From an uncultured Gemmatimonadales bacterium (GTDB taxonomy: Bacteria > Gemmatimonadota > Gemmatimonadetes > Gemmatimonadales > GWC2-71-9), in contig CAVUAK010000001.1 of the NCBI GenBank assembly GCA_963739455.1, positions 192,001 to 256,000 of the forward strand: DNA of 64,000 bases, in the 5' to 3' direction. Of this stretch, positions 39,558 through 61,485 are shown piece by piece. A program made the position numbers and the translations under genes. The notes under the pieces were generated by a model. The model had not been told where the DNA came from, made no database searches, and saw nothing but the letters and a program-made list of their open reading frames with translations. The stretch's first letter is position 1. Each line of letters starts with the position of its first letter.

Positions 39558-39617
39558 GTAACACTTCCGTTATGTACCCTTCGCCCAACCCACACACGAC
39601 GCGCATGCAGCGGTGAC
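39558..39617 (+). promoter_or_regulatory. Pho-box-like 11-bp-periodic array upstream of the phoX-like gene
   Basis: GTAAC(39558), GTTAT(39569) and GTGAC(39613, five periods on); the intervening units are weak. Confidence 0.5.
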
Positions 39618-39669
39618 AGCAGCCTCCGAAGTTTCCCGGATACTGGTTTACCCAATCCCGGAGCTTCCC

Positions 39670-41229: not shown

Positions 41230-41234
41230 TCCCG

Positions 41235-45150: not shown

Positions 45151-45213
45151 CGTGTACGATAGCCACTCAGCCGAACTTGCGCGCCGGAGCCGAATCACGC
45201 CGCCCGTCATCGG

Positions 45214-45591
45214 CTAGTCGCTCCCACCGATCAGGACTGAGATCTCCATGGGCGAGATGCCCTCGCTCGGGAGGTCGAGCGTGGGCGCGTGACACACGTG
45301 GTTGACCTTGACCCAATACCTGCCGGCCGGCACGTTGCGGATCGTCACCATGTAGGAATGCTCCTCCAGGTTGGCGGCGCTCTCCGCACCCTCGTAGCGC
45401 GCCACCACATGCAGGTTGATCTTCTGCCGATGGCGGTTCGCGTGTGCGCTCAACGCCCATCGGCCCATCCCCACGCTGAGGCTGCCGCGCACCACCACCG
45501 TTCCTGGTCCACCTTCCGCTCCCACACTCGGACGCCCAGTCGCTGCTGCGCCAGTCTGGCTCTGGAACTCCGTCGGAAGCCGGTGCGCCAT
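45214..45591 (-). CDS. Small hypothetical beta-sandwich protein, last gene of the TonB operon
   Basis: TAATG stop/start overlap at 45589-45593; Y.VTIRNVPAGRYWVKV. Confidence 0.6.
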   Translation of the reverse strand: MAHRLPTEFQSQTGAAATGRPSVGAEGGPGTVVVRGSLSVGMGRWALSAHANRHRQKINLHVVARYEGAESAANLEEHSYMVTIRNVPAGRYWVKVNHVCHAPTLDLPSEGISPMEISVLIGGSD

Positions 45592-47696
45592 TACCAGCCC
45601 ACCGTCCAGCCGGTGAACCAGGGAACCACGTTGCCTTCGATCGGGGCACCACCCGTGTAGGTGAGCGTCGGATCGAAGAAGCCGGTGATCGGAATCGGTC
45701 CGCCGGTCGATGCCGCGCTACCGGGCATTGGACGGAAGTCGGGCGTGAGCGTCAGGAAGGGTGCGGCAAGGCCGGGGTTAGTCACGATATTGCCGAGTGA
45801 CGGGGTCAGGGCGTACGCCGCCTCATCGATGCAGTCCACATCGTCTGAGAAGTTGGGCTGTCCCTGGAAGAAGATGCTTGCCCGTACCGTGAGGCTGTCC
45901 GCTGTAAGCGCACAGCCTTGTGCCCCATCGATCTGCAGGCCGGCGCCGGAGGTGCGCAGGATGACCGCATTGCTGATCAACCCGCCGGTGCCGTGGCCAA
46001 GCAGCAGTCCCGGCGCATTCGTCTCCGTCCCCAGCGCGCCAATCACCGTGAGGTTGTAGATCGTCGGATACGTGAGGCGACGCGCCGAAGCGCTTCCGTC
46101 CGCGTTGCTCCCCAGCACCGCTGGACTGGCCGAGGCAGGCTGCTGCACGATCACGTTCTGGGCTCGGCCCTGCCATCCGTTGCTCCACCGGAGCCCGGTG
46201 CCAAGGTTGCCGGTCAGGAGCACCGCCCGGAATTCCGCACGGCCGCCCGACACGTACATCCCGTCACCGAAACTGTTGGCCACCTGGATGGTGTCCATGA
46301 CGGTGCCGCTGCCCACGCCAAGCAGCGACAGGCCCGGCGTGATGACGCCCTCTGCCGTCGCCATGCCGGCATTCTCGATCCTCACGTATCGCAGGGTGCC
46401 ACTGTTGAACCCGTCCTGGCATCCACCGTAGTAGCCAAGGTTCCCCGGCGACGCTTTCTGCGGACAGGGCTCGATCTCGTTTCCACTGCTCATGCCGTCA
46501 TTGTTGAGCACTCCAGGACCGTTGATGTTGAGCCCGCCCCAGCAGCCGGGATGCATTGATGGCGTGCAGCTGAATACCACCGGCTGCAGTCGGGTGCCGA
46601 TCGCGACGATCTTCGCGCCCCGCAGGACGGCCAGCCTGCCGGCGGTCGCGGTCTGCCCCTCGATGCGCGTCCCGGCCTCGATCGTGAGCGTCACACCGTT
46701 CTCCACGCTCACCACGCCATCGAGTTCGTAGACCGTGTCGCGTCGGAGCGTGCGATCCGCACTGATGACGCCGCTGAGTACCGCACGCAGGCCCGGCACC
46801 ACCCGGCCCGGAATCGGTCGTCCCACAATTGGTGCCGGCTGGCCCACCGACGCATTCGCGATCGCAAGGGCATCGAGCAGGTTGATCACGAACGTTCCGT
46901 TCAGCTCCCGGCCCGGCGGATTCGCATCGTCGGGCTCGCCAAGGCCTGGCAGGTTGGCCGGCTCGACGTTGGCCGCTATGACGTTGTCATTGGCCGCATT
47001 GGTGATCAGCGACTGGCTCCCGACGCCAACGTCCGCCGCCGCCAGGGCATCGAGCAGGGTGATGGAGCCGTCCAGCGTCGCGTCGCCGTAGATGGTGCCG
47101 GCGCCGGCCACGAACACGATCGACCTGGCCGGCGCCCGCTCACCGAGTTCCACTGCCCAGGCGTTGATGTCCATCATCCGGCCATCGGACCGCGGCAGTC
47201 CATTGTCCACCTCGGTCCCACCATGCACCACCAGGACGACAAGCCGTCCATCCGCCCCGACGCTCAGCGTCGGGCCCAGCCGCAGCGCGTCCGCGTAGCC
47301 CGGCGCGAGCACCCGGAAGGTCAGGACCACCATCCGCTCGGGGAGTGGCCCCAGCCCGAAAGTGATCAGCCGAAGCCGGGAGGACGGTGAGTCCTGCGTT
47401 GCTGCCATGGTGTAGCTGCCGGGTTCCACGATCTGGCCAGCGTACGCGAGCTGGCGCGAATCGAAGAGCAAGTCGGCTTCGAGCCCGCGCAGCCCACGGT
47501 CGAGGCCCCGCGCGCGAATCGCGACGGCGACCACCGCACCGACCGGCGCGGCGCGATCGGACACGACCACTTCGAGCGCAGGGGCATCCGAGGTGGCGTC
47601 AGGCTCCGGCGGCACATCCCGTCCACAACTCGCGAGTGCTATCGCGAGCAGCAGCGAGGCCAACACGCGCGGCGCGGCCAGCGCAGAATGCCTCAC
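45591..47696 (-). CDS. Lipoprotein: cohesin-like + dockerin-like + beta-helix domain (degenerate paralogue)
   Basis: LASC lipobox; GAVVAVAI..GLEADLLFDSRQLAY; YGDATLDGSITLLDAL...INLLDALAIAN; TLTIEAGT, WGGL.I.G, NSGTLRYVRIENAG, L.L.GVGSGT and W.TGWT. Confidence 0.8.
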   Translation of the reverse strand: MRHSALAAPRVLASLLLAIALASCGRDVPPEPDATSDAPALEVVVSDRAAPVGAVVAVAIRARGLDRGLRGLEADLLFDSRQLAYAGQIVEPGSYTMAATQDSPSSRLRLITFGLGPLPERMVVLTFRVLAPGYADALRLGPTLSVGADGRLVVLVVHGGTEVDNGLPRSDGRMMDINAWAVELGERAPARSIVFVAGAGTIYGDATLDGSITLLDALAAADVGVGSQSLITNAANDNVIAANVEPANLPGLGEPDDANPPGRELNGTFVINLLDALAIANASVGQPAPIVGRPIPGRVVPGLRAVLSGVISADRTLRRDTVYELDGVVSVENGVTLTIEAGTRIEGQTATAGRLAVLRGAKIVAIGTRLQPVVFSCTPSMHPGCWGGLNINGPGVLNNDGMSSGNEIEPCPQKASPGNLGYYGGCQDGFNSGTLRYVRIENAGMATAEGVITPGLSLLGVGSGTVMDTIQVANSFGDGMYVSGGRAEFRAVLLTGNLGTGLRWSNGWQGRAQNVIVQQPASASPAVLGSNADGSASARRLTYPTIYNLTVIGALGTETNAPGLLLGHGTGGLISNAVILRTSGAGLQIDGAQGCALTADSLTVRASIFFQGQPNFSDDVDCIDEAAYALTPSLGNIVTNPGLAAPFLTLTPDFRPMPGSAASTGGPIPITGFFDPTLTYTGGAPIEGNVVPWFTGWTVGW

Positions 47697-48994
47697 TGGA
47701 ACGTGTCCATGTCTTCGATCCGGGTGAAATTGCCCCGCGCATCCACCACATACAGGATGATGCCGTACACGTCGGTGTACGCGATGCTGTTGCCTAGTGG
47801 CAGGTCGGGCACCTGCGTGCCGAGATAGCCGGGTGTGTTGTAGATGCCGATGTCCTGCTTGCCATCGGGCGGGCCCAGGATCCCGTCCCGCAGCACCGCC
47901 GCCACGAAGAAGCCCACCTGGTCGCCCTCCGGATCCGCAACGGAGAAGTGCGTCTTGAGTACGTCTGGGCCGTTCAGCACCGCGTTGAAATCGCTGACAC
48001 CCGGGCGTGATCCCGCCTCGTCCCGGAGCGGCTGCTCCACCGTCACCGACGTATTGCCGAAGTTGTCGTCCACCCGGAGCGAAGCGCAGCGCCCGGCGAG
48101 CTCTGCGTCCGGCAGCCCGACCTCGAACGCCCCGATGATCGTCGCCGAGTCCGCGAACCCCGTGCGCCCATCGAGCAGCCCGCCCCGCACGCGCACACCG
48201 CCAGGCAGCACTGACGCACCGTGGCAGTCCGTGATGTCCCAGTAGTAGTTGGTCAGGTTTCGGTTGGGTGAGGTGACCCGCGCAATGAAGACGCCCGCCC
48301 CGTCATGGTACGATGGGTTGAACGACAGGATGGAGGGACGCTGCGTCGGCGACGAGCAGATGGCGTTGAAGCTGACGTCGGTCCCGCCATCCTCGCTCAC
48401 GGTCACCGTGCGTGACGAACCGCCGTCGTTCACGAAGGTGCAGTTGCTGCTCACGTGCTGCAGCGAGACGGTATACGTGCCTGCCGGAAGCTCAGGGAGC
48501 AGTACCGCGGAGTTTGCGCCGACCACTCCATGTGCCTCGGCGGCGGCCCCACTCACCTGCCACACATACATGCTGTCGTTCGCGACACCAGTGGTGTTGA
48601 CGGTGATGCTCAGCGACGCACCGCACACCACGAAGAACCGGCTCAGTGCCGTGTTGGTGCCCTCCGGAATGACGAGCACATCCGTCGTGCCGTACCGGCT
48701 GCGGCATTGTGTCGGAAGGTCCTGCAGTTCGATCGAGTAGGTTGACGGCGCTACCGAGAGGATGATGGTGTCGGTCGGCGCCGCCGTGATCGTGGTGTCG
48801 AGCATCTTGAGGGTGGAAAGGTCGCGCACGTGATACCGGTACTGTTGTGCCAGCTGGGTACCCTGCGGCTTTGCCACGATGGCCAGGTACGGTGGTCCTG
48901 CCGATGATGGCTCTGCCGCGTTGCTGCACGCAGCAAGTGCCCCGGCTGTGAAAAGCAGCCGGAGCACCCGCCACATACACACTGCCTTGTTCAA
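47693..48994 (-). CDS. Hypothetical lipoprotein with two Cys-bridged Ig-like modules
   Basis: LAAC lipobox; YSIELQDLPTQC...FFVVC and LPAGTYTVSLQHVSSNC...VSFNAIC. Start may be 48976. Confidence 0.75.
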   Translation of the reverse strand: MNKAVCMWRVLRLLFTAGALAACSNAAEPSSAGPPYLAIVAKPQGTQLAQQYRYHVRDLSTLKMLDTTITAAPTDTIILSVAPSTYSIELQDLPTQCRSRYGTTDVLVIPEGTNTALSRFFVVCGASLSITVNTTGVANDSMYVWQVSGAAAEAHGVVGANSAVLLPELPAGTYTVSLQHVSSNCTFVNDGGSSRTVTVSEDGGTDVSFNAICSSPTQRPSILSFNPSYHDGAGVFIARVTSPNRNLTNYYWDITDCHGASVLPGGVRVRGGLLDGRTGFADSATIIGAFEVGLPDAELAGRCASLRVDDNFGNTSVTVEQPLRDEAGSRPGVSDFNAVLNGPDVLKTHFSVADPEGDQVGFFVAAVLRDGILGPPDGKQDIGIYNTPGYLGTQVPDLPLGNSIAYTDVYGIILYVVDARGNFTRIEDMDTFQ

Positions 48995-49006
48995 CTGCGC
49001 ACTACC

Positions 49007-51430
49007 CTACCGGCCGGTCGGGGTGGACCAGCCCGTCCACCATGGCAGGCTGCCCGGGCCGGTCGCGCCCAGGTAGGTCGCCGAGACGTCGAAGAAACCG
49101 TCGTTGGGTGGCGTGGCACCGGTTGCCGTCGCCGCGGCACCGATCGGCGTGTAGTTCGCGATCGTCGTGAACGGCGACGCGATGAAGCTCGTCGTCGCAC
49201 CCGCCGGAACCGCCATGGCATTGCTCGGGTAGGTGATGGTGCCAGCCAGCCCGTAACCGGGGAGGAGGCTGTAGTCCTGCGTCCCGCCGGTGTACCCGAT
49301 CCACGTCGCTTCCAGGTCGCTGTTAGCGGCGTTCACCGTGTACTGACCACAGACCGTGCCAGGCGTCGGCAGGACTGGGTCCCCGGTGTCACCATCGCCG
49401 TTCGCCGAGTTGCCGAAGAACATGGCGTTGCGGAACGTCAGCGAATCCTTGGCGATCACCTTGCAGATATCCTGCGACAGCACCAGGCCGGCAGTTGCGC
49501 CAGCGGGCTGGTCGATATCGAGACCCGCCTTCCAGCCACCGACCAGGAAGTTGCGCAGCGTCCCGCCGGTGTTCTGGCGCAGGATGACACCCGCCGTAAC
49601 GGAGGAGGTGGTCGGGTCCGGCGCGCCCAGCAGCGTGAAGTTGTAGAGCGTCGGCGCCGAACGCGGCGCTGCTTCCGGGTCGGTCCCGTTGCCGTCGATG
49701 CCGAAGTTGTCGGCCTCGATGCCACGATCACAGCCGGTCTGGCAGCCGCGCACGATCACGAACTGCGCCTTGCCCCGGTAGCCAGCCACCCAGTCGAATC
49801 CGTCATCCTGGGTGCGGTTGATCACGAGGTGCTTCACGTTCACGGTGCCGCCGAAGAACTCGACGCCGTCATCCAGGCCGTTGTCGGTGCTTACGTAGTC
49901 GATGGTCGTTCCACTGCCGATGCCCTGCAGCGTGAGCGAGTTGCGCTCGTTCGTTGCCGTGAAGCGCGTACCGGCGTTGACGATGCGAACGTACGTCAGG
50001 CTGCCGCTGTTGTCGGCCGGGTCGTTGCCGCCGTAGGGGCCGGTGTTGCCCTCACCGGTCGGGCAGATGCCGCCCGAGCCCGCACCGCGACCGGCCTGGT
50101 CGCCCGGAACCGTCACGGCCGGACAGGCGGAGCCGTTGTTCACCGGCGCCAATCCGTTGATGTAGACACCGCCGAAGCAGCCGGCGCCGAACGGGCCACC
50201 GTTGGTGGCCGAGGCCACCGGCTCATAGCAGTTGAACTCGACCGGCTTGAGGAACGTGCCATTCGCGAAGATCTGCGAGTTGCGGTCGATCACCAGCGTG
50301 TTGCTGTCCGACAGCACCAGAGTGCCCGGCCCGATCGTGAGCTTGGCGCCGGTGACGTTGCAGACCGGGTTGGCGCCGGTCGGCTTCGGGATCACCCACA
50401 CATGCGTGGAATCCCACGTGGTGTTCACCGTGATCGGGCAGCTCACCACCTGCTCCGAGGCCAGCGCGCCGCGGCCGGCGATCTGCTTGCCGGCCACCGG
50501 ACGGGTGCCCGGGGCCACCGCTTCGTTCGCAATTTCGAGCGCGTCGATCAGGTTGATCGTGCCCGAGTTCGGGTTGCTGCAGCTCTCGAGGCCGGGACGG
50601 CAGGCACCAGCGAGGCCACCGTTGGTCGGCTGCACGTTCGCCGCCACCACCAGGTCCTTGCGTGATGCACTTCCGATGGCTCCATCAGTGCCCTGGATCG
50701 CGAACAGGTTGCCCACCGCGACGTTGCTGACATCGAGCGCATCGGCGAGGGACACGCCGCCGCTCAGGTTCACGTCACCATACTTGAGGTTGACGAGTCC
50801 CAGGTCGCCCGGGTTGGCGCTGATCGGGCCGGTCGGCCGGTAGCCGGCGTCGAGCAGCCCCTGCCAGTCCTGCACGGTGAGGATGCGGGCCGACTCCGGC
50901 ACGCTGAAGTTCCCCACTCGCACTTCCGGATCCACGTTCGCTCGCTTCACGTACAGCAGCTGCTGGCCTGCGGTGCCACCGATCTCATAGTCGAACTTGA
51001 GGCTCGCCGCGTAGTTGGCACGCGTCACTTCGAACAACAGCACCGATGCGTGCTCCGGCAATCCCGCCGGGTTCAGCACGCCCAGCCGCAGGCTGCCCTC
51101 ACGCGCCGCGGAGGCGTTGACGATCGTCGCCGTCGAGCGATCCTCCGGCTGGCCCACATAGCGGAGCGCCGCAGGACTGAAATGCAACGTGCCCTGCAGG
51201 GCGCCCAGCGACTTCCCGTCGATCTTCCCGACGCGAAGGGCCACGGCCACGCGCTGGCCGACCGGCGTATTCAGGTTCGAAACCTCGACCGCGAGGTTCA
51301 CATCCTGGCTTGACTCGGGCACCGCCGCCGGCTCGCTCGGCACGCCATGGTCGCTGTTACAGGCAGCGGCCAGGACGAGTCCGGCGGCGACCAGCGCGCG
51401 CTCGAATCGTGAGTTGAGGTGCAATCGCAT
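49007..51430 (-). CDS. Lipoprotein: cohesin-like + dockerin-like + acidic beta-helix domain of the TBDR-associated type
   Basis: AAAC lipobox; VGQRVAVAL..LGALQGTLHFSPAALRY; YGDVNLSGGVSLADAL...NSGTINLIDALEIAN; YGGNDPADNSGSLTYVRI, DDGVEFFGGTVN, DDGFDW..GYRGK.QF and GIEADN. Confidence 0.85.
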   Translation of the reverse strand: MRLHLNSRFERALVAAGLVLAAACNSDHGVPSEPAAVPESSQDVNLAVEVSNLNTPVGQRVAVALRVGKIDGKSLGALQGTLHFSPAALRYVGQPEDRSTATIVNASAAREGSLRLGVLNPAGLPEHASVLLFEVTRANYAASLKFDYEIGGTAGQQLLYVKRANVDPEVRVGNFSVPESARILTVQDWQGLLDAGYRPTGPISANPGDLGLVNLKYGDVNLSGGVSLADALDVSNVAVGNLFAIQGTDGAIGSASRKDLVVAANVQPTNGGLAGACRPGLESCSNPNSGTINLIDALEIANEAVAPGTRPVAGKQIAGRGALASEQVVSCPITVNTTWDSTHVWVIPKPTGANPVCNVTGAKLTIGPGTLVLSDSNTLVIDRNSQIFANGTFLKPVEFNCYEPVASATNGGPFGAGCFGGVYINGLAPVNNGSACPAVTVPGDQAGRGAGSGGICPTGEGNTGPYGGNDPADNSGSLTYVRIVNAGTRFTATNERNSLTLQGIGSGTTIDYVSTDNGLDDGVEFFGGTVNVKHLVINRTQDDGFDWVAGYRGKAQFVIVRGCQTGCDRGIEADNFGIDGNGTDPEAAPRSAPTLYNFTLLGAPDPTTSSVTAGVILRQNTGGTLRNFLVGGWKAGLDIDQPAGATAGLVLSQDICKVIAKDSLTFRNAMFFGNSANGDGDTGDPVLPTPGTVCGQYTVNAANSDLEATWIGYTGGTQDYSLLPGYGLAGTITYPSNAMAVPAGATTSFIASPFTTIANYTPIGAAATATGATPPNDGFFDVSATYLGATGPGSLPWWTGWSTPTGR

Positions 51431-51456
51431 GGATCACGTTCTCCAGTCTTCGGGTG

Positions 51457-51494
51457 ATTCCGGACCCGGCCAGTGCTCCTGGCCGGGCCGGAAT
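51457..51494 (-). terminator. Strong intra-operon stem-loop (attenuator or 3' stabiliser)
   Basis: ATTCCGGACCCGGCCAG-tgctc-CTGGCCGGGCCGGAAT; no U-tract. Confidence 0.6.
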
Positions 51495-51505
51495 GAACTG
51501 TTGGT

Positions 51506-53446
51506 TCAGGGCGTGGTCGGGATCGTGGTCGACCCGTCGTTGCCCTGCACGAAGGCGCTCACGTTGATCGTGCCCGTGGTGATCGCGTTGTAGATGTTGA
51601 CGTCGAAGGCCGAGAGCGCGGCGGTGGTGGCCAGCGATGCACCCGGGAGCAGCTCGAACGTGCATGAGCCGATCGGGATGTTGGCGCTGTTGGCGACACC
51701 AGTGCCTGCCTGGACCGCACCCGGCACCAGCACGCCCGGGGTGGCGGTACCGACGGTGAAGATCGTCCACGCCCGGCCCGGCGCGCAGTTGGACGTCGGG
51801 TCGTTGTCGAGGATCTGGAGGCGCGACGTCGGGTAGGTCGAGTTGAACTGGATCGTGTTCAACCGGTCCGTCGCCGCTTCCGTCGCGTCGTTGCGCGTGC
51901 TCATGTCGATGCGCCACGAGATCGTGATCAGCTGCCGCGCCTGGCCCAGCGCGTTGGTGCCCGCCGTAACCGGGCTCCACGTCGCGTACGCCTGGTAGAA
52001 TGACGGGGCCGGTGAGCAGGTCACCGCGAATGACACCGTCTGCGCCGCCGCGCCGGTGAGCCCGCTGTAGTTGGCCGCCGTCGCACCGGTGAAGCTGGTC
52101 GGCGTGCAGCTGGCCGGAATGCCGGTCACCGACACCGTGCCGGCGCCGCCCGGGGCGACGTACTGCACCGCGCTGCTGAAGGCACCAGCGGCGCTCGGGC
52201 TGATCGTCACCGGCGGAAGGCCGGCACCGGTCGGCGTGATCGTCACCGACGCGCCCGCGAGCGACGGCGCCACGGCCAGGCCACCGGCCAGCGTGACGTT
52301 GATCGTGCCGTTGACGGTGCCGGTCAGGGCGCTGCAGGTGACGCTGACGTCGGGCAGGGAAACAGTGCCGGCAGTGCTGATCGCCGGGACCGCGACGCCA
52401 GCCGGGGCAACGCAGCCGCTCGGCAGGTTGGTCAGCGTCAGCGTGCGCGCCGGACCAGCCGTCACATTGTTGATGATGAGGTTGTACGCCGGGGCGGCCG
52501 CGTTCGTGCTGACGCCGCTGAAGCCGCCGGGGGCGATCGTGCCCGTGGCGCCGGTGATCACGCCGATCTGCGGGGAAGACACCCGTGCCTGCACCGTCGC
52601 CGTCACCGCCGGGCCGCTGTTCTGCAGGTCGGCCGCGGTGAGGATCAGGGAACGGAAGTTGGAAACCGTCGCGTCGATGATGTAGCCGACCGTCTGGGTC
52701 GAGCTGCTCGCCAGCGGCCCGAGCGGGGCGCCGAAGGCCTCGTAGCGATAGCAGTCGTTCGCCGCTGCCGCTGCGCAATCGCTGTCGTTGAACCAGTTCC
52801 ACGGCGCGCCGTTGAGCGCCGCGGTACCGTCGCCATTCCAGTCATCGCTCGTGGTCACTTCGCCCCGGTTCGGCATCACGATGATCACTTCGTTCTGGCT
52901 GCCGGTGGCGCCGCCAGTGGTCGTGGTCACGTTGTTGGCGAAGGGGAAGCTGTAGATAGCCTGTGCGGTGAGGCTCGGCGGGGTCGGAAATGCCACGTTG
53001 CTGTTGCCGCCTGGACGGACCAGCTGCACCCCGCTCAGCTTGTTGGTCAGGGTGATGTCGAACGTCACCCGGATCTTGCCCGGGGGGGCGTTCACGCCCG
53101 GCAGGCCGGCGTTGAAGTTGGAGGCCGTGATGTCAATGACGTCACCACCCTGCAGGCCGGCGTTGATGTCCTTCGACACGCCACGACCCTTCCCGGCTGA
53201 CCCGATGCTCCCGCTCAATCCCGTCACGGGCGCCGACACCTTCACCGTCTTCTTCGCGACGTTCACGTCGAACACAAACGCTGCCTGGTTGAACTGCGGA
53301 TTCGGTGCCGGGTCACCCGGAACGTCCGGGCCGGCGGGCGAATCGGACTTCGCGCTGCAAGCGCCGAGTCCGAGTGCGGCGGCGGTGACCAGCATGGTCA
53401 TCGTGCGCGCGTTGACGCCCCGGTTGAGGGGGAAACCGAGAAACAT
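51506..53446 (-). CDS. Ala/Thr/Gly/Pro-rich surface lipoprotein with two Cys-bridged Ig-like modules and a C-terminal cohesin-like domain
   Basis: AGGAGG RBS before ATG 53446; LGAC lipobox; LTLTNLPSGC...VSVTC and VSVTGIPASC...FAVTC; C-terminal TIFTVGTATPGVLVPG...IGSCTFELL. Confidence 0.8.
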   Translation of the reverse strand: MFLGFPLNRGVNARTMTMLVTAAALGLGACSAKSDSPAGPDVPGDPAPNPQFNQAAFVFDVNVAKKTVKVSAPVTGLSGSIGSAGKGRGVSKDINAGLQGGDVIDITASNFNAGLPGVNAPPGKIRVTFDITLTNKLSGVQLVRPGGNSNVAFPTPPSLTAQAIYSFPFANNVTTTTGGATGSQNEVIIVMPNRGEVTTSDDWNGDGTAALNGAPWNWFNDSDCAAAAANDCYRYEAFGAPLGPLASSSTQTVGYIIDATVSNFRSLILTAADLQNSGPAVTATVQARVSSPQIGVITGATGTIAPGGFSGVSTNAAAPAYNLIINNVTAGPARTLTLTNLPSGCVAPAGVAVPAISTAGTVSLPDVSVTCSALTGTVNGTINVTLAGGLAVAPSLAGASVTITPTGAGLPPVTISPSAAGAFSSAVQYVAPGGAGTVSVTGIPASCTPTSFTGATAANYSGLTGAAAQTVSFAVTCSPAPSFYQAYATWSPVTAGTNALGQARQLITISWRIDMSTRNDATEAATDRLNTIQFNSTYPTSRLQILDNDPTSNCAPGRAWTIFTVGTATPGVLVPGAVQAGTGVANSANIPIGSCTFELLPGASLATTAALSAFDVNIYNAITTGTINVSAFVQGNDGSTTIPTTP

Positions 53447-53524
53447 GCGACCTCCTGAAGTTGGTGGGCTGGCGACTGCGGTTACCGCAGCGACCACAAG
53501 ATCCCGCCCACCACACACAGCACG

Positions 53525-53584
53525 GTGATTCCTCTGTAGCACGTTGATAAGCGACGGAGGCGCAATCGGTGACACCGTTGTGAT
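53525..53584 (-). promoter_or_regulatory. Internal Pho-box-like 11-bp-periodic array
   Basis: Minus strand: ATCAC(53584), GTCAC(53573), CGCCT, CTTAT(53551), GCTAC(53540), ATCAC(53529). Confidence 0.5.
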
Positions 53585-53589
53585 GTCGC

Positions 53590-55995
53590 TCACGGCGCGG
53601 TGAACGTTCCCTCGACCACGCGCGTGAGCGAGCCATAGCTGAAATCACCAGTCGCCGGCGTGCCTAGCAGCGCGCCGAGGATGCTTTGTGTCGTTGTCGT
53701 GGTACCTGGCGCACCAATGACATCGAACTTCACCCGTGCGATCGGTACCACACTCTGGGAGTTCTGCGCGGTCACCGATCCGCTGAAGCTGATGTCACCC
53801 TGCGGCGCGTTCGTGAAGTTGAACCCGCCCGGTGTACCCGAATCGATGTTGAGCGCGAAGAAGCGAAGCACCGCCGGGTCCCACTTGAGGCGCACCACCG
53901 CCCACGCGGCGAGCGCCTCCGGCCCCGGGGTCTGCGGGATATCAGTGGTCAGGTCGAACAGGATGGTCAGCGTCACCTGGCCGTTCACTACCGGCCCGAA
54001 GGACGATGACCAGGTGAAGGGTTGCCCGCCGCCACCTCCTCCGTCGGAGATGGTGACGCCGGCCGTGGCCGAGTTCTGGGCGCCGGAGTTGTCAGTCACC
54101 GTGAGCGTCGCGGTGTACGAGCCCGCCGCGGCATAGGCATGCGGGGCGACAGCGCCACTGCCCGTGGCACCGTCACCGAAGTTCCAGGCATATGACACGA
54201 TGCTGCCGTCGGGATCGCTCGACGCCGAGCCATCGAACGAAATCGACGCCCCGACTGACCCGGCATACGGGCCGCCCGGACGTGCGATCGGTGGCAGGTT
54301 GCCTCCACCGCCGCCCTCGCTGATCGTCGCCGTCGTCGTCGCCGTCGAGCTGGCACCGAGGTTGTCGGTTACCCGCAGCGACACCGTGAACGGACTGCCG
54401 CTGGTGCTGGTGTACGTATGGCTCGGCGTTGGCCCGATCGCGGTGCCACCGTCGCCGAACGACCACTCATAGGTCGCAATCGTTCCGTCGGGATCCGACG
54501 ATCCCGCGCCGTTGAACGCGATCGGCGATCCCACGGTCCCGCTGTACGGACCACCCGGTGCCGCCACCGGCGGCTGGTTCGTGCTGCCGCCACCAGTCCC
54601 CACCGTCAGCGTCGCTTCCTGCTTGCGCACCTGATCCGAGATGTTGAGCACCTCAGTCGGGTTTGCGGCGGTGTTCGCACTGACCTCGATGCCGGTCGTC
54701 TGCGTCGTGAACGTGGCGCCGTTGGCGGCTCCCGGGAGCACGGTGAAGTACAGCCTTGCCACGGTCACCAGCCCCGGCACGCCAAGGCCCGCCTTCACGC
54801 CGCCCGGGATGACCTGACCCGGGGTTGCCGTGCCGACGACGAAGATCGTGTTCAGCTGGCCCGCCAGCGCACTGTCGTACTGCACCACCGCCTGGTCGAA
54901 GGTGATCGTCGCCTGGGCCGTCGTGGCCCGCTTGTCCGGCTCGGCGCGCAGGTCGAGTTGCACCAGGAGCTCAACCACCGAACCCGCCGGTGATGTCGCC
55001 GGAGTGAAGGTGCTCGTCAGGATGAACGGCTTGTTGCCCGCGTCGGGATCAGTGCAGGTCACCGTGAAGGTGCGTTCGGTGGTCACGCCCGCCGTCACCG
55101 GTACGTCATCCAGCGTGGCCCCACCTTCCACCGTGCAGTTGTCCGGCACCTCCTGCAGCAGCACCTGGTAGCTGCCCGGCCGGAGCCCCGTCAGCAACTC
55201 CGTGCTGTTGGCGCTCGATGTCGTCTGCTCGATCACCACCGCCTGCAGTGAATCGGTGATCCCGACCACCTTGAGGTGATAGTTGGCCGGCAGGTCGTCG
55301 CCCGTCGTCGCGATCGTGAGCTTGAGGTCGCCCAGCGACGGATCGCTGCACGACACGAGGTAGGACACCGCCTGCACCGTGTTGAGCCCCTGGTCCGTGA
55401 CGGTGACATTCCGCTGAAGGCTGTCGACCGGGACACAGTTGGGCGCGAGATCGCCCAGGACGATGTGATACGCGCCCGGCCGGAGCGGCGACACGGTCCT
55501 GGTGCCGGTAGCATCCAGCTGCACGACCGCGGTGTCCGTGGCACTGCTGATGTGCGCCTCGAACCCGTCCGGGTCGAGCGCCACGGCCGGTCCCTGGGTC
55601 TTCGTCTGGATCGTGATGCCCGGCAGCGGCGGGGTGGACGTTCCCGACACCGTGGTGAAGCCGAGGCTCGAGCCCTGGCGATCGATGACCTCGAGCCGGT
55701 AGCCGTAACGCGTGTCCGGCCGGACTGCCTGGTCGAGGTATTCGCTTTGGCTGCGATTGACGTTGTCTGCCAGCAGGTCGAATGGCCCGGTGAGGTTTTC
55801 CCTGCGGTACAGCCGGTAGAAGCTGGCGTCGTCCACCGGGGTCCACCGCACTCGGACTGACCTGAGGTTGAGGGCCTCCGCCGAGAACGGCATCGCGCTG
55901 GGTTCGGGCGCGCTGTCTTCGCCGTGGCATCCCGCAGCGACTAGCAGCAGCAGGCCGACGGTGTACCGGGCAATCGAGCGGAGGCTAGAACGCAT
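53590..55995 (-). CDS. Scaffoldin-like lipoprotein: Fn3 - Ig - Ig - cohesin-like - PKD - PKD - cohesin-like
   Basis: AAGC lipobox; VRVRW..Y.LYR..Y.D..V.P.TRY.Y (Fn3); two N.PP.A.PGGPY..SSDPDG.I..Y.W.FGDG (PKD); QATITFDQAVVQY..VARLYFTV and LKWDPAVLRF..IARVKFDV; Gly linkers. Confidence 0.82.
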   Translation of the reverse strand: MRSSLRSIARYTVGLLLLVAAGCHGEDSAPEPSAMPFSAEALNLRSVRVRWTPVDDASFYRLYRRENLTGPFDLLADNVNRSQSEYLDQAVRPDTRYGYRLEVIDRQGSSLGFTTVSGTSTPPLPGITIQTKTQGPAVALDPDGFEAHISSATDTAVVQLDATGTRTVSPLRPGAYHIVLGDLAPNCVPVDSLQRNVTVTDQGLNTVQAVSYLVSCSDPSLGDLKLTIATTGDDLPANYHLKVVGITDSLQAVVIEQTTSSANSTELLTGLRPGSYQVLLQEVPDNCTVEGGATLDDVPVTAGVTTERTFTVTCTDPDAGNKPFILTSTFTPATSPAGSVVELLVQLDLRAEPDKRATTAQATITFDQAVVQYDSALAGQLNTIFVVGTATPGQVIPGGVKAGLGVPGLVTVARLYFTVLPGAANGATFTTQTTGIEVSANTAANPTEVLNISDQVRKQEATLTVGTGGGSTNQPPVAAPGGPYSGTVGSPIAFNGAGSSDPDGTIATYEWSFGDGGTAIGPTPSHTYTSTSGSPFTVSLRVTDNLGASSTATTTATISEGGGGGNLPPIARPGGPYAGSVGASISFDGSASSDPDGSIVSYAWNFGDGATGSGAVAPHAYAAAGSYTATLTVTDNSGAQNSATAGVTISDGGGGGGQPFTWSSSFGPVVNGQVTLTILFDLTTDIPQTPGPEALAAWAVVRLKWDPAVLRFFALNIDSGTPGGFNFTNAPQGDISFSGSVTAQNSQSVVPIARVKFDVIGAPGTTTTTQSILGALLGTPATGDFSYGSLTRVVEGTFTAP

Positions 55996-58693
55996 AGTTC
56001 ACCGCCACGTTGAGGTCGACGCCGTAGCGCACCGACCCGGCGATGCGCTGTGCGTCGGAGGCACTCTCGTCATCGGTTTCCAGCAGCACCAGCGCGTTGG
56101 TCAGGTTTTTTCCATCGATCGAGAGCTGCCAGTGCTTGGACAGCCCGAACACGACCTTCGCGTCCAGCGTCTCGTGACCAACCTCGATGTAGTTGGGCCC
56201 CTGGGTCTGCCCGCTCAGCGCGCCGTAGCGGAACACCCGGTTCCCGAACCAGTTGAAGAGCAGCGACGCCGTGATGTTGGGCCGCTCCGCCTGGTAGATG
56301 AAGTCGATGTTGATGAGGTAGGGTGACTGACCCTGGAACTGCAGGTCGGGCGAGAACACGCCCAGGCTGTCCGGCAGCGTAATCCGCGACCGCAGCAGAG
56401 TGACGTTGGCCTGCAGCAGCAGCCCGCGCAGTGCATGGGAAATGAACCCGAGTGACTTCTGGGCCTCGAGCTCGATGCCAATCGTCGAGCCCCGCGTCGC
56501 GTTGACCGGCAGCGACACGAACTCGCCGCTCTGGTATTGCACCACCGTCACGATCGGGTTGTCGAACTGCTTGTAGAAAACGCTCGCCGAGAGCTGCTCA
56601 CCCGCGCCCGGGTAGGTCTCGAACCGGAGGTCATAGTTGAGGATCGTTCCCGGCTCCAGCGCCGGGTTGCCGATCTCGAAGAGGCCGCCCACCACCGGCG
56701 GATAGCCGCCCGGGGCGAACTCCCTGAGCTCCGGACGCACGACCGTCTGCGAGAACGCCGCGCGAAGGTTGCTCGCCGGCGACACCGCCCACGTCAGGTT
56801 GACGGAGGGAAGCCAGTCGGTACTCGCCTTCGAGGGAACGCTCCCTGCATCGGTGGTATCCGCCAGGCGCACCGTGGCGTTCCACTGCTCCATCCGCAGG
56901 CCTCCCACGAAGCGAAGGCGCGGGAACACCTCCATGTCCGCCATCACGAACGCGGCGAAGACATCGTCGGTGCCGGAGTAGGGAAAGATGATGCCGCTGG
57001 TGGGAACGATCTGGATGAGGCCGTCGCTGCTGGCGCCCATGTTTTCCGGCGCGAACGCCTGTTCCGGCGGCAGCAGGCGCGTGGAAAGCGGAGCTCCGCC
57101 GGTGATCATCTGGTAGGCGGCGCCGTCCAGGTTGCGGTTCGTGAACCGCCCCAGCGCACCCACCTTGAATTCCGCGTCCCCCTCCTCACGCAGGGTGAAG
57201 GGCGTCGCGTACGAGAAGTCGCCCTGCGTGGTGATGTCGGTGAAGTCGTAGTTGTACCGGAAATTGGGAAACTGGTCCAGCAGCTGGAATCCCGGCCCGC
57301 CGGCCTGTGACACATAGGTCAGCTGGCGGTTGTCGTTGTCGCTCCGTCCTGCCCGGCCATACCCGGCCCGCCACTCCAGCCGCCCGTTGGGTAGCAGGTG
57401 CTCCCCCTCGACCAGGCCCTGGTAGATGAACCGCTCGATGAAGAACATCTGGTAGAGCTTGATCGCCGCGTCGTTCGGGTCGATGCGGACGCCCGAGCCG
57501 AGCGTGGAAGTGCTTGTCGATCCCGTGGTGTAGAAATTCTTGAACGACAGCTTGTTGCGGGAGCCAAGCCGGTAACTGAAGTTCGCGATCGCGCCGAAGT
57601 CGGCCAGCGCGGAGGCCACGTTGTAGGTGTACGCCCCCGAGCCCAGTGTGCTGTACAGGTCCGGCACGTACGTCCGCGCCGCCGAGGTGTTGAGCGCCAG
57701 TGAAAGGCCGAAGACATCCGACTGGCCGATGTCGAAGCTTGTGCCGAACGACGCCTGCAGCGATGCCGCGGGCAGCACGGTGCTGCTCGCCGGGGTCCAC
57801 ACATTCGCGAATCCCTGCGAGAAGACCACCGGATCCGGGTTGGGCGGCGGCGTGGCACCCGCACCGCGCCAGCCTGGAAAGGGAACGTCCTCGAAGGTGC
57901 CGTTGCTGTTGTAGCCACCCTTCACCTGGAAGGTGAACTCCGTCTCCTCCGGGAACTCCTTGGTGCGGATGTCTGCCGATCCGCCGGCAAAGTCGCCCGG
58001 CCGGTCGGGCGTGGCCGTCTTCTGCACCACGAGTGCCTCGAGCAACGACGACGGGAAGGCATTGAGCGGTACCAGCTGCTTGTCCGGCTCGGGGCTCGCC
58101 ACCTCGATGCCGTTCAGTACCGACGTGCTGTATCGCTCCGTGAGTCCACGAATGACGACCTTGTCGGCCAGCACTGCAACGCCGGAGACCCGGGTGATCG
58201 CAGCACCCGCGTCCGAGTCCGGTGTCTTGCTCATGAACTCGGCGCTCACGCCGTCACTCTCCACCGCAGAGTTCTTCTGTTCCGAGAGCAGCCCCGCGTC
58301 AGATGACGCCGCCTCGGGCAACTCGGCCGCGACCGCGAGCTCCTCGAGCTGCACTGTGGCCGTGTTGAGCGCCATGGTGATCACCGTCGTCTGGCCCGCC
58401 GTGACCCGCACGCTGTCCACCCGCGCCGGCTTGAATCCGAGCTGCCGCCCCGTCACCGAGTAGACACCCACCGGTAGTGCCACCGACCGGAAGCGGCCGT
58501 CGAGGTCGGACTCCGCCTTGCCGAGTTGTCCGGTTACCTCGATGGTCACTCCCTGCAGTGGCTTGCCGGAGCCGCCATCCACCACGCGTCCCGCAATCCT
58601 CCCGGTGGCAGCCGGCGCCTGTGCCGCAGCCACACGCGCCAGCCCCAGGCCGATGATCACGAGCCCGGTGAAGACCCGACATGTCACGCGCAT
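55985..58693 (-). CDS. TonB-dependent receptor with N-terminal carboxypeptidase-regulatory-like domain
   Basis: GRIAGRVVD..SG.PL.G; plug TPDSDAG.A..RVSGV, IRGL.ERY; TVVRPELRE, GNPALEP, GQSPYLIN; C-terminal Phe. ATG overlaps the upstream stop. Confidence 0.93.
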   Translation of the reverse strand: MRVTCRVFTGLVIIGLGLARVAAAQAPAATGRIAGRVVDGGSGKPLQGVTIEVTGQLGKAESDLDGRFRSVALPVGVYSVTGRQLGFKPARVDSVRVTAGQTTVITMALNTATVQLEELAVAAELPEAASSDAGLLSEQKNSAVESDGVSAEFMSKTPDSDAGAAITRVSGVAVLADKVVIRGLTERYSTSVLNGIEVASPEPDKQLVPLNAFPSSLLEALVVQKTATPDRPGDFAGGSADIRTKEFPEETEFTFQVKGGYNSNGTFEDVPFPGWRGAGATPPPNPDPVVFSQGFANVWTPASSTVLPAASLQASFGTSFDIGQSDVFGLSLALNTSAARTYVPDLYSTLGSGAYTYNVASALADFGAIANFSYRLGSRNKLSFKNFYTTGSTSTSTLGSGVRIDPNDAAIKLYQMFFIERFIYQGLVEGEHLLPNGRLEWRAGYGRAGRSDNDNRQLTYVSQAGGPGFQLLDQFPNFRYNYDFTDITTQGDFSYATPFTLREEGDAEFKVGALGRFTNRNLDGAAYQMITGGAPLSTRLLPPEQAFAPENMGASSDGLIQIVPTSGIIFPYSGTDDVFAAFVMADMEVFPRLRFVGGLRMEQWNATVRLADTTDAGSVPSKASTDWLPSVNLTWAVSPASNLRAAFSQTVVRPELREFAPGGYPPVVGGLFEIGNPALEPGTILNYDLRFETYPGAGEQLSASVFYKQFDNPIVTVVQYQSGEFVSLPVNATRGSTIGIELEAQKSLGFISHALRGLLLQANVTLLRSRITLPDSLGVFSPDLQFQGQSPYLINIDFIYQAERPNITASLLFNWFGNRVFRYGALSGQTQGPNYIEVGHETLDAKVVFGLSKHWQLSIDGKNLTNALVLLETDDESASDAQRIAGSVRYGVDLNVAVNYAF

Positions 58694-59703
58694 CAAGGCT
58701 GGCTCGACGCGGCGGCGCTCACCTGGGTGGCAAAGGGCTCCGGCTTGGCTGCCGACTCCGGCCACTCACCGCGAAGGAAGGTGGCCGCGGCGGTATCGAA
58801 TGCCGGTTCCGCCCCCAGCCAGGGGAAGCCGAACGCCCCGGCGATGAACGCGACACGTGCGTTCGGCAGGTGCTGCGCCCAGCGGGTCGCCGCAGCCTCC
58901 ACCATCTCGTTGCCCGATCCCTCGATCACCAGCACCGGTGCCGGGACGTCATTCAGCGCCAGCCGCCAGCTCCAATAGCCCAGCTTCGACAGCACCGCGT
59001 AGTTGATGCGCTCCACCTGCTCGATGCGGTCGTCGGGTGCGCTGCACACGCTCCTGCCCACCGTCCGTGTGTCGGCGCGTGGATCCTTGAGCGTGCCGTA
59101 GAAGAACGTCGGCCACACCACCCGGCATGCACGCGACACACTCTCCCCACGCCGCAGTTGCCCCAGCATCTGGGCCTCTCGGCCACGTCCGGTGGTATCG
59201 GTGCGCTGCATGCCGATCTCAAAGGCGAAGGAGGGGTGTACCACGAAGGGACTGACCATCAGGATGCGAGATACCCGATCCGGATGGCGTATGGCATAGA
59301 GAGCGCCCACCGCTGCACCCCAGTGGTGCCCGACCAGCGTGAGTCGCGAAAGGCCGAAGTGCTGACGCACCGATTCGAGGTCGGCCACGTCGGAATCGGG
59401 CGAGAGGGCAAGCGAGTCGGTCACGGCATCCGACCGCCCGCGTCCCCGCATGTCGTAGTAGATCAGTGTCCGCCCCGCCTGCAGCGCCTGGAGCGGTGCC
59501 TCGAGGTACACATGATCCACACCGGGCCCGCCATGCAGCACGACCACCGTGTCCGGCCCCGATCCAAGCGCGACGTATGACAGTCGAATCCCGCTCGCGG
59601 TTGTGACCGTTCCCTGTTCCCTGTTCCCTGTTCCCTTGGCGGTACACGCGGTTCCCGCCCATACCACGGCACACACGATGGACAGCACGCGTAGCGGACT
59701 CAT
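58693..59703 (-). CDS. Alpha/beta-hydrolase-fold lipoprotein (proline iminopeptidase-like), catalytic residues apparently lost
   Basis: GTAC lipobox; LHGGPG, YDMRGRGRS; nucleophile elbow reads GHHWG; no His in the GAFGFPW loop. Confidence 0.82.
   Translation of the reverse strand: MSPLRVLSIVCAVVWAGTACTAKGTGNREQGTVTTASGIRLSYVALGSGPDTVVVLHGGPGVDHVYLEAPLQALQAGRTLIYYDMRGRGRSDAVTDSLALSPDSDVADLESVRQHFGLSRLTLVGHHWGAAVGALYAIRHPDRVSRILMVSPFVVHPSFAFEIGMQRTDTTGRGREAQMLGQLRRGESVSRACRVVWPTFFYGTLKDPRADTRTVGRSVCSAPDDRIEQVERINYAVLSKLGYWSWRLALNDVPAPVLVIEGSGNEMVEAAATRWAQHLPNARVAFIAGAFGFPWLGAEPAFDTAAATFLRGEWPESAAKPEPFATQVSAAASSQP
59609..59636. repeat. Heptamer (GTTCCCT)x4 inside the hydrolase CDS
   Basis: Encodes KGTGNREQGT just after the lipobox. 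Confidence 0.85.
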
Positions 59704-59841: not shown

Positions 59842-61485
59842 CTATCGGATGCGTGCGATCGCGATACGGGCGGCGAGCAATGGTGCGATGGCCTGGCCGC
59901 CTCCACCCGTCAGGCGCACCGGCACCGCCGCCGCATTGGCCGGCAGCACGAACCGCACATGCTGCCCCGATCCCGCGCGCAGCGTGCCGCTCCGGGCGTA
60001 GCTGGCACCGCTGGTGCTGTCGGGACGGAGCGGATACACCGGTGAGAGCTGCGACATCGTGGCACGCAGGTTGACCGACAGGTACTGCAGTTGTGGTGGA
60101 ACCGTGGGAAGCCCCTCGAGATTGTCGAGGTAGTTGGCGAGCTGCCATGCGCCCACCAGCTGGTCGAACGCCGTGCCGGTCACTGCAGCAACATTGTCAC
60201 TGCCGACGACGCTCGTCTGTACCAGCGCGCGGGTAAGCGCCGTTCCCTTCACATCCGCTCCGGCGTACTGGTCCGCCAGCCACCGCACGAAGAGCCACTG
60301 CGCACCCCGCTCCTGCAGGTAGCCCAGTGAACTCCCAGGGTTCACCAGGAAGTAGTTCGCCGGTTCGCCGAAGTAACCCGATGCATTGTAGACGTCGCCC
60401 TGCAGGAACTGGGATTGCCGGGTCGCGGCATCGCCCTGTGCCGCCCCGTCGGGAATGAGCCGGCCGCCGAGTTCCTCGGCGAAGTGGGACAGGCCCTCGT
60501 TCAGCCAGACGTTCTCGGAGCTGCCACCGCGAACCAGCACATGCTGGTTGAAGCTGATCATGTGCTGGAACTCATGAATGAACGTCGGCGCCAGGCCCCG
60601 CAGCACGCGCTCCCGCGTGTGACCGCAGCCTGGATTGGCGGCATCTGGCACCCGGCTGTAGAACACCTCGCCCCCGTTCGATCCCGGCTCGCTCGGCACC
60701 AGGTCCACCCCGTAGAAGTAGCCCAGGATGACCGACCCGTTGCTGCAGTCGCCGCTCAATGCGTTCACCGCACCCGAAAGGAGGATCGCGACGACCCCGT
60801 TGTCGTCGAGGTCCGATTCCCGTCCGAACGCCGTCGTGTCGATGGGATACATGTAGGTGTCGAAGAGCACGCCCACGTCGGTGATATCCTGGTCGGTCAG
60901 GCCGCCGGCCGGGACAGCGTCATCCACATAGATCGCGCCCTTGGCGCCCACGTAGCGCGCCGTCGCGGCCACCCGGACAAAAGCGGTGCAACTCGTCGTA
61001 GAGCAGACATTGAAGTCGCGATGGTCGCCCACGACCGGAAGGGCGACGAGCCTCGCGGCGCGCGGACCTGCAGGTGGTACGTCGCGAGTCAATCGCGCTT
61101 CCAGGTTCCGGAGTCGCTCGTGAAACGCTCCGTTCGGCTGGGGCGAGCCATCCGGTGAGGTAGCCCGCGCTCGCGTTGGGCTCCGCAGCGACGCCGATGT
61201 GCCTGCACCTGCCGTGAGCGAGTACGTACCACTGATCCCGCTCGTCACCTGCACTCCGTTTGTCGCGATCGCCGCCACGAGATACTCTGCGCCCGCAGGT
61301 CCCGCCGCCGGCAGCACCAGGCACCCCTCCGATAGCGACGGGTCAACCACGCGGTACTCGCCCGCTGCGAGGACAGTGGGTGTGATGGCGTCACATGGGC
61401 TGGCTGGCACCGGATCTGAGCCACCACAGGCAGTGGCAGCGGCGACTACGAGCAGTACGTGGTAGGCACGATGGGAAGAACGCAT
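59842..61485 (-). CDS. Zn-metallopeptidase lipoprotein (M30/hyicolysin-like)
   Basis: ATAC lipobox; FG.ESDLD.NG.V.IL, GYFY..DL, HEFQHMI.FNQH and WLNEGLSH.AE. Start may be 61533. Confidence 0.82.
   Translation of the reverse strand: MRSSHRAYHVLLVVAAATACGGSDPVPASPCDAITPTVLAAGEYRVVDPSLSEGCLVLPAAGPAGAEYLVAAIATNGVQVTSGISGTYSLTAGAGTSASLRSPTRARATSPDGSPQPNGAFHERLRNLEARLTRDVPPAGPRAARLVALPVVGDHRDFNVCSTTSCTAFVRVAATARYVGAKGAIYVDDAVPAGGLTDQDITDVGVLFDTYMYPIDTTAFGRESDLDDNGVVAILLSGAVNALSGDCSNGSVILGYFYGVDLVPSEPGSNGGEVFYSRVPDAANPGCGHTRERVLRGLAPTFIHEFQHMISFNQHVLVRGGSSENVWLNEGLSHFAEELGGRLIPDGAAQGDAATRQSQFLQGDVYNASGYFGEPANYFLVNPGSSLGYLQERGAQWLFVRWLADQYAGADVKGTALTRALVQTSVVGSDNVAAVTGTAFDQLVGAWQLANYLDNLEGLPTVPPQLQYLSVNLRATMSQLSPVYPLRPDSTSGASYARSGTLRAGSGQHVRFVLPANAAAVPVRLTGGGGQAIAPLLAARIAIARIR

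Follow-up and report, generated by a model that had tools for sequence, protein, structure and literature searches.

Cohesin-dockerin cassettes beside a TonB-dependent transporter in Gemmatimonadales: a candidate lipid-anchored surface assembly

What would cohesin and dockerin domains do on the surface of a diderm bacterium, beside a TonB-dependent receptor (TBDR)? The question is raised by an operon of eight minus-strand open reading frames (ORFs) at positions 45214..59703 of a 64,000-nucleotide stretch of DNA (the window) from an uncultured Gemmatimonadales bacterium (contig CAVUAK010000001.1, positions 192,001 to 256,000). A first-pass annotation, made from the letters alone, had seen here eight co-directional genes holding five cohesin-like and two dockerin-like domains, and had proposed a lipid-anchored assembly around the receptor, probably for phosphorus scavenging. 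The eight ORFs are indeed all present (GC content at third codon positions 0.77-0.87); named by ORF length where they carry a number, they are the hydrolase, TBDR, g801, g695, g807, g433, g701 and g125 (Table 1). Our results suggest a lateral complex in which dockerins that can close on their own cohesins would also dock on scaffold cohesins, under a recognition code that differs between genomes.

Divergent cohesins and dockerins

The seven predicted domain intervals lie in frame: cohesins 1 and 2 in g801, cohesin 3 in g695, and one cohesin plus one dockerin in each of g807 (cohesin 4) and g701 (cohesin 5). All five cohesin-like domains prove to be of the cohesin family, cohesins 2 and 3 by way of cohesin 1. 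In the Foldseek check that the annotation had proposed, cohesins head the matches of the AlphaFold model for g807 residues 41-172: the best match for cohesin 4 (VIA) is a Clostridium perfringens cohesin (2jh2, Z 13.8, root-mean-square deviation 2.4, 122 residues aligned), an Archaeoglobus fulgidus cohesin scores Z 11.1, and the first 47 entries are cohesins. The beta-sandwich thus has cohesin topology, by model for cohesin 4 and by homology for cohesin 5, and cohesins make up 19 of the 21 PDB sequence matches to the profile of the family that these two form. The top PDB matches of the cohesin 1 profile are ScaC and ScaB cohesins (best E 0.0035), and its match to Pfam Cohesin (E 8.7e-4) is below the cut-off; against the PF00963 gathering score of 24.1 bits, cohesin 1 reaches 19.9 and cohesin 4 reaches 15.4, as divergent members. 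The profiles of cohesins 2 and 3 found no PDB sequence match of their own. As they align to cohesin 1 in hhalign at 99.3% and 97.6%, respectively, both appear by sequence to be cohesin homologues only transitively, through cohesin 1, which itself aligns to the cohesin 4/5 family at 90.5%; cohesin 3 aligned directly to that family gives only 2.5%.

The two dockerins are confirmed by their profile, for which seven of the eight PDB sequence matches are dockerins (best E 7.5e-4) and which, run against 1.84 billion representatives, retrieves seven multi-dockerin proteins above the Pfam cut-off. Pfam Dockerin_1 itself matches four of nine members of the family, each below cut-off. The modelled g807 dockerin has two loop-helix repeats, with helices at residues 228-238 and 294-305, and the position-12 Asp of both calcium loops is near invariant (D230 in 100% and D296 in 99%). 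The structural matches listed for the g807 models are cohesins throughout, with no dockerin structure among them. Isolated EF-hands or generic Ig folds were considered and rejected on the PDB matches of the dockerin profile and the structural matches of the cohesin. Our own dockerin profile finds only two dockerins in the genome of the window (G000, 84% complete).

A self-complementary cassette and a genome-specific code

Both dockerins of the window follow a cohesin within the same chain, an arrangement that the first-pass annotation had not seen and that changes the mechanism. Of 156 proteins that have a full dockerin, 140 also have a cohesin (most exceptions are fragments), nearly always at the N-terminus after the lipobox, and the payload of this cassette is a beta-helix in 112 of the 156. 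The g807 tandem folds as one rigid unit when modelled with 105 sequences (predicted local distance difference test 92.4, predicted template modelling score 0.90); in a first full-length model, with 20 sequences, the dockerin had low confidence. Across 172 sequences, cohesin and dockerin are coupled at z 10.3, 8.4, 8.2, 7.9 and 5.3, against a shuffle maximum of 4.6, and the coupled sites join cohesin strands 3/6/8 (g807 residues 76, 77, 117 and 150) to dockerin loop positions 9, 10, 13 and 14, which we take to be the usual cohesin-dockerin interface. That the cohesin might instead be an X-module buttress was rejected, since the coupled sites of the dockerin are recognition positions. Stronger than any other couplings (z up to 20) are those that join equivalent positions of the two dockerin repeats, and the two repeats have the same residue at position 10 in 76% of sequences versus 27% when shuffled; repeat symmetry of this kind is described as a dual-binding signature in the accessible part of PMC12484212.

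Payloads other than the beta-helix occur: among 43 atypical proteins that were scanned, the payload is an S8 protease in eight, and RCC1 propellers, RHS repeats or a polysaccharide lyase are found in others. P0141, P0142, P0144, P0160 and P0168-P0172, with L193:7540-9975 and L211:9513-10454, are the unusual forms noted: the cassette is fused to RHS repeats, to propellers of the RCC1 and SBBP types and to a polysaccharide lyase, and one ORF (in G739) stops 19 residues past its dockerin. A homologue search for longer forms, restricted to 1450-4140 residues, retrieved giant proteins of 2300-3800 residues; its six proteins were not used.

At 10 recognition sites the g807 and g701 dockerins are 77% identical within a genome versus 32% between genera (22 genomes), and at the 88 other sites of the same paralogous dockerins 47% versus 43%; the permutation p is 0.0005 when each of the 10 genera is represented by a single genome. 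The recognition positions of the literature (10, 11, 17, 18 and 22) give 72% versus 49%. The g701 helices form one old clade (support 100 in a quick tree), which argues that the sharing of the dockerin code is concerted, and recent duplication was rejected on that ground as its general source. Further dockerins carry the code too: five of five extra dockerin proteins, from four genera, match the code of their own genome, and only 0-2 of 51-60 dockerins from other genera match it equally well. Two of the five sit on S8 proteases on other contigs, in G155 (by Pfam) and in G005 (motifs seen).

Between cohesins 1 and 3, the genome-specific excess identity peaks at coupled columns (0.64, 0.33 and 0.27 at the equivalents of residues 77, 119 and 117). 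We then compared similarity at five coupled cohesin positions with the g807 dockerin code, using de-duplicated operons and 500 random column sets: cohesin 1 tracks the code (partial r 0.32, no random set as high, n=23), as does cohesin 4 (r 0.37, one of 500, n=28). One code common to the dockerins of a genome and tracked by cohesin 1, probably also by cohesin 3, suggests that dockerins bind in trans too. Sequence statistics indicate a lineage-specific recognition code and a dual-binding symmetry as in cellulosomes. Predicted as a complex, g801 cohesin 1 and the g807 dockerin scored 0.27 and 0.25 against a mark of 0.32; the prediction had no controls and is counted neither way.

A proposed assembly at a transporter with a putative lid

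Behind their cassettes, g807 and g701 end in a right-handed beta-helix that the first-pass annotation had overlooked, with structural matches (VIA) of Z up to 21 to many unrelated helices and no close relative. Stand-alone homologues of this helix adjoin a TBDR in 78 of 80 loci of Gemmatimonadota, Bacteroidota and Ignavibacteriota: a pectin-lyase-like beta-helix lipoprotein encoded near a non-SusC TonB-dependent transporter (TBDT). Such pairs are not unprecedented: ElpS (cc0171) of Caulobacter is a surface-exposed lipoprotein (PMC2996285), Fjoh_0545/Fjoh_0546 of Flavobacterium have a comparable layout, with the TBDR Pfam set listed (PMC8115612), and BT4055/BT4056 of Bacteroides are a predicted TBDT-lid pair with BT4056 on the outer face (bioRxiv 10.1101/2023.03.17.533168), in the accessible parts of the three reports. 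Because layout, fold and TBDR Pfam set match, we infer that the g807/g701 helix is of the ElpS/BT4056 lid family. Like ElpS, Fjoh_0546 and BT4056, it is a right-handed beta-helix lipoprotein downstream of a TBDT, here with the Pfam set of Fjoh_0545; unlike them, it is duplicated, bears a cohesin-dockerin cassette, stands two scaffold genes away from the TBDR, forms its own branch (support 94 in a quick tree) and mostly lacks Pho neighbours. The operon would extend an ElpS/BT4056-type transporter-lid pair. In 39 of the 44 stand-alone Gemmatimonadota loci a 229-residue gene (L038:10846-11532) lies behind the helix gene. The genome of the window has such a stand-alone TBDR plus beta-helix pair as well (C1:343046-347633, L034), between clp and his genes, with its TBDR split over two frames near C1:344780-344830 by an assembly error or a frameshift.

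The transporter context is conserved. The synteny search across Gemmatimonadota that had been proposed covered the loci of 43 related genomes besides that of the window, with flanks uneven in length: 22 of them keep the core order TBDR-g801-g695-g807-g433 complete on a single contig, headed by the TBDR in all 22. Operon genes occur in 42 of the 43, and most genomes without the full core hold fragments of it, limited by their contigs but with the genes in this order; G342 and G417 have lone cassette genes and G464 has no match. The dockerin type was found in 22 of 401 samples at the level of the phylum, in 33 of 401 at that of the family and in 30 of 401 at that of the order (the genome of the window included) and is confined in these samples to two families of one order; homologues are labelled Gemmatimonadales by NCBI, in keeping with the phylum meant in the first pass.

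We propose that the operon encodes a lateral, lipid-anchored complex around the TBDR on the outer membrane, held by calcium-dependent cohesin-dockerin bonds. The g807 and g701 proteins would be lid-type beta-helix proteins with an N-terminal cohesin-dockerin cassette, in which each dockerin could close on its own cohesin by the usual interface. A dockerin would then swap from its own cohesin to a scaffold cohesin, and the freed cohesin would take another dockerin in turn. In this way the lids, together with enzymes of matching code from genes elsewhere, such as the S8 proteases, would cluster at the transporter. A self-complementary cassette of this kind would have a capped state that opens by exchange and could extend into chains, and its symmetric repeats would permit two binding orientations. 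Since every partner is lipid-anchored, the role of the bonds would be to arrange the proteins laterally, not to tether them. That dockerins dock in trans on scaffold cohesins, clustering lids and code-matched enzymes at the transporter, is the reading that the sequence comparisons make probable. The fuller scheme, in which self-capped cassettes exchange onto scaffolds and chain, gathering lids and proteases at one transporter under a genome code and yielding orthogonal plug-socket pairs, is a more tentative proposal that we would sooner doubt than assert. Fold, synteny and three co-variation results back the lipid-anchored, TBDR-linked assembly put forward in the first pass; binding itself is the part that we infer from them.

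Several observations weigh against this reading. At the domain level, all window cohesins and dockerins score below Pfam cut-offs (which may explain why they are unannotated), and an insertion of about 25 residues splits the second calcium loop between N265-V-x-P268 and T-I-N-L-I-D296; inserted calcium loops do occur in ruminococcal X-dockerins. The couplings within the cassette do not separate cis from homotypic trans binding. As to the code, the 10 sites were picked after the motifs had been seen, the 88 other sites also have a small within-genome excess (p at most 0.0015), and the 26 held-out metagenome loci contain one operon with both dockerins, from a near relative of G270, in which 6 of the 10 sites agree. 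The two dockerins of G428 and of G531, the exceptions to an old duplication, group together, so that some gene conversion is possible. Among the scaffold domains, cohesin 3 is borderline (r 0.32, 31 of 500, n=22), neither cohesin 2 (r 0.13, 104 of 500, n=23) nor cohesin 5 (n=15) gives a signal against the g807 code, and a wider face of 12 columns gives one for cohesin 4 only (10 tests). The lid-family assignment, finally, is indirect, made through fold, synteny and TBDR architecture.

Some of these points are what one would expect if the cassette were a lock acting in cis, each dockerin binding only its own cohesin to form a rigid, calcium-stabilised spacer for the lid, with the solo cohesins as generic stalks and no assembly in trans. 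The rigid model of the tandem (predicted template modelling score 0.90), the fixed cassette (140 of 156 proteins), the strongest cohesin-dockerin couplings being within a chain, and the failure of cohesins 2 and 5 to track the code all suit such a lock, which nevertheless gives no reason for a code common to g807, g701 and unlinked protease dockerins and leaves both the tracking by cohesin 1 and the symmetry of the two repeats unexplained; we consider it unlikely. The genome-specific code would also fit a self-polymerising coat or adhesin, its cassettes joined head to tail in chains or in a two-dimensional lattice that would serve adhesion or kin recognition, with the TBDR as a separate member. 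The cassette is self-complementary, partners already lipid-anchored make tethering superfluous, PKD, FN3 and Ig stalks are present, and for syntrophic sulfate reducers an adhesin role of cohesin/dockerin proteins is discussed in the accessible part of PMC10553843. But a TBDR heads the core in 22 of 22 intact cases, and the main payload is a TBDR-partner helix, whose stand-alone homologues have a TBDR next to them in 78 of 80 loci, and a coat or adhesin, if somewhat more plausible than the lock, remains improbable to us.

The complex might also face the periplasm, its lipoproteins on the inner leaflet of the outer membrane organising the periplasmic extension of the TBDR or processing imported substrate. 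The N-terminal extension of the TBDR would allow this, and the genome's GspD-like secretin scores below cut-off; against it stand the surface exposure of ElpS (PMC2996285) and the predicted position of BT4056 on the outer face of its TBDT, as far as the accessible text of both sources goes and provided the family link holds. This is the least probable of the three alternatives to lateral assembly at the cell surface.

What such an assembly would take up can be said with less confidence. The phosphorus scavenging proposed in the first pass was argued from neighbouring genes, and that argument fails: the PhoX/di-haem pair and the sulfatase are near the operon in 0 of 43 related genome loci, as are pst genes (flanks uneven in length), and the PhoX/di-haem neighbours were rejected as part of the system. 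Phosphorus is weakly favoured by pstS near 21 of the 44 stand-alone helix loci in Gemmatimonadota and by pst/phoU genes convergent on the operon in 4 of 26 metagenome loci (three distinct sequences, one sub-lineage). One stand-alone TBDR-helix pair, in G057, sits between two-component genes and pstS/C/A/B-type, phoU and ppx genes; outside Gemmatimonadota, response regulator or kinase genes stand alongside 15 of 36 such loci (Bacteroidota and Ignavibacteriota). The operon TBDR shares 30% identity with the TBDR of one pair in a Pho cluster. Phosphorus would be an inherited context, but the operon helices stand on their own branch, mostly without Pho neighbours; the recurrent HExxH lipoprotein and the S8 payloads suggest proteins or peptides. 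Given the assembly, we would hold organic phosphorus and glycans or other compounds equally possible and proteins or peptides marginally less so.

Comparison with known systems supports the view that the operon works like a small cellulosome-type assembly and is not a cellulosome, no glycoside hydrolase (GH) or carbohydrate-binding module family being matched above cut-off in its genes. With the cellulosomes of Clostridium thermocellum (CipA), Acetivibrio cellulolyticus (ScaB) and Ruminococcus flavefaciens (ScaC) it shares the cohesin fold and the duplicated calcium-loop/helix dockerin. Adaptor scaffoldins also have a cohesin plus a dockerin in one chain, as in the operon cassette. The coupled 3/6/8 face, symmetric repeats and lineage-specific recognition are further likenesses, according to the accessible part of PMC12484212. 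Unlike cellulosomes, the operon has a diderm host, a predicted lipoprotein for every partner, a coupled TBDR, a scaffold of 2-3 cohesins, a self-complementary cassette N-terminal on its payload and a long second-loop insertion. An A. fulgidus protein has cohesin and dockerin in tandem. The non-cellulosomal pairs (C. perfringens NagJ, A. fulgidus, ANME, syntrophic sulfate reducers) likewise have no cellulase context, and the C. perfringens and A. fulgidus cohesins among them provide the best structural matches; the operon differs from these pairs in its conserved transporter context, in a cassette fixed to a lid-type protein and in a code that can be measured across the genome. In the SusCD utilisomes of Bacteroidota, TBDTs are clustered with surface lipoproteins and enzymes by direct docking on the barrel, whereas here assembly is proposed to go through cohesin-dockerin bonds, and family scans of the operon genes found no SusC or SusD match. 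Diderm sulfate reducers carry cohesin/dockerin modules too, in the accessible part of PMC10553843.

The system is therefore not categorically new, as cohesin-dockerin modules occur outside cellulosomes in many lineages; our literature search, with subscription journals mostly outside its coverage, turned up no account of this operon. For most cohesins and dockerins outside cellulosomes neither a partner nor a purpose has been assigned, and here the operon offers both partners and a membrane context, with position-level predictions of who binds whom that small recombinant domains could test. If true, the proposal would connect the study of cellulosome-type assembly with that of TonB-transporter lids, fields that have been separate, and would offer a way into the role of the ElpS/BT4056 family; the distinct codes across genomes are candidate orthogonal pairs for designer scaffolds.

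Gene inventory and neighbourhood

Overlapping stop and start codons, reported at most junctions, are found at four of the seven (with the g695 start at ATG 53446, preceded by AGGAGG and followed by a lipobox); the others have gaps of +143, +75 and +12. A scan for promoters and terminators stayed at or below chance. Five lipoproteins had been counted, and g801, g695, g807, g433 and g701 are such, to which the hydrolase must be added. The latter was rightly called degenerate: in 16 sequences its nucleophile position is His (13) or Asn (3) and never Ser; the gene is present in 15 of 43 genomes. A paralogue, 31% identical, lies elsewhere in the genome (G000:C1:651427-652305). The absence of GHs from the operon likewise stands, no GH family matching any of its genes.

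Table 1. Operon genes, their domains and the upstream lipoprotein, in window positions
Feature	Positions	Strand	Description
HExxH zinc-metallopeptidase-like lipoprotein	59842..61485	-	lipobox; no cohesin or dockerin; frequent associate, beyond the first-pass coordinates
Alpha/beta-hydrolase-fold lipoprotein (pseudo-hydrolase), optional	58693..59703	-	PF00561 E 1.5e-20; lipobox
TBDR, core	55985..58693	-	CarboxypepD_reg-like N-terminal extension, plug, barrel
g801 scaffoldin-like lipoprotein, core	53590..55995	-	FN3, Ig-like repeats, cohesin 1, two PKD, cohesin 2
Cohesin 1 (g801)	54598..55035	-	profile matches to cohesins; contact positions co-vary with g807 dockerin code
Cohesin 2 (g801 C-terminus)	53593..54027	-	separate class; dockerin code not tracked
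g695 lipoprotein, core	51506..53446	-	N-terminal domain, Ig-like middle, C-terminal cohesin 3 (51509-52012)
g807 lipoprotein, core	49007..51430	-	cohesin 4 (~50915-51310), dockerin (50465-50794), right-handed beta-helix (49010-50460)
g433 lipoprotein, core	47693..48994	-	Cys-paired Ig-like repeats akin to those of g801; C-terminal Asp-rich domains
g701 lipoprotein, optional	45591..47696	-	cohesin 5 (47148-47579), dockerin (46797-47102), beta-helix; old g807 paralogue
g125 small protein, optional	45214..45591	-	no lipobox; present in 11/43 genomes

The TBDR has the Pfam set PF13620, PF13715, PF07715, PF00593 and PF14905 and scores 248 bits against TIGR01782, below the cut-off of 310. Orthologues of g801 have 2-3 cohesin-family domains each, g695 relatives come in 1-3 tandem copies, and PF28492 is found, by precomputed annotation, on 18 of 18 g807 homologues. 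Family scans detected neither cohesin nor dockerin in g433, which is present in 33 of 43 genomes; a further copy of the Ig-like repeat of g801 and g433 lies at G000:C1:2424804-2425283. Atlas searches gave only clusters without a name, among them the best match of the g695 N-terminal domain (0.88). The small protein g125 is probably outside the surface complex, N-termini of its orthologues being, by eye, without signal-like sequence. The upstream HExxH lipoprotein, overlooked in the first pass, matches Pfam Peptidase_MA_2 at E 0.03, below cut-off, keeps its motif in 16 of 16 orthologues, lies near the operon in 15 of 43 genomes and is presumably M30-like.

On the other side, g388 (44044-45210, minus strand) begins 3 bases past g125, has no Pfam match and resembles, we presume, an RMD1/DUF155-type membrane protein; found beside the operon in one of 43 genomes (G008), it was rejected as a member. 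Further on, at 39613-43043 of the plus strand, a PhoX-like protein is followed by an imelysin-like/di-haem MauG-type fusion, which in relatives has no link to the operon; in Flavobacterium, a pair of PhoX and a MauG-like protein is phosphate-induced, in the accessible part of PMC8115612. The pstS match in the genome of the window (C1:76413-77337) is split over two frames, possibly by a frameshift or an assembly error. A second cohesin-dockerin operon occurs in the same bacterial order, at L029, L031 and L033 of family f3 genomes G056, G048 and G044. It comprises a CsgG/TPR protein, a 370-residue protein, cohesin lipoproteins and large secreted proteins with cohesin, dockerin and beta-helix or PD40; its dockerins are above the Pfam cut-off, and cohesin matches are also found in L030, L032, L035 and L036.

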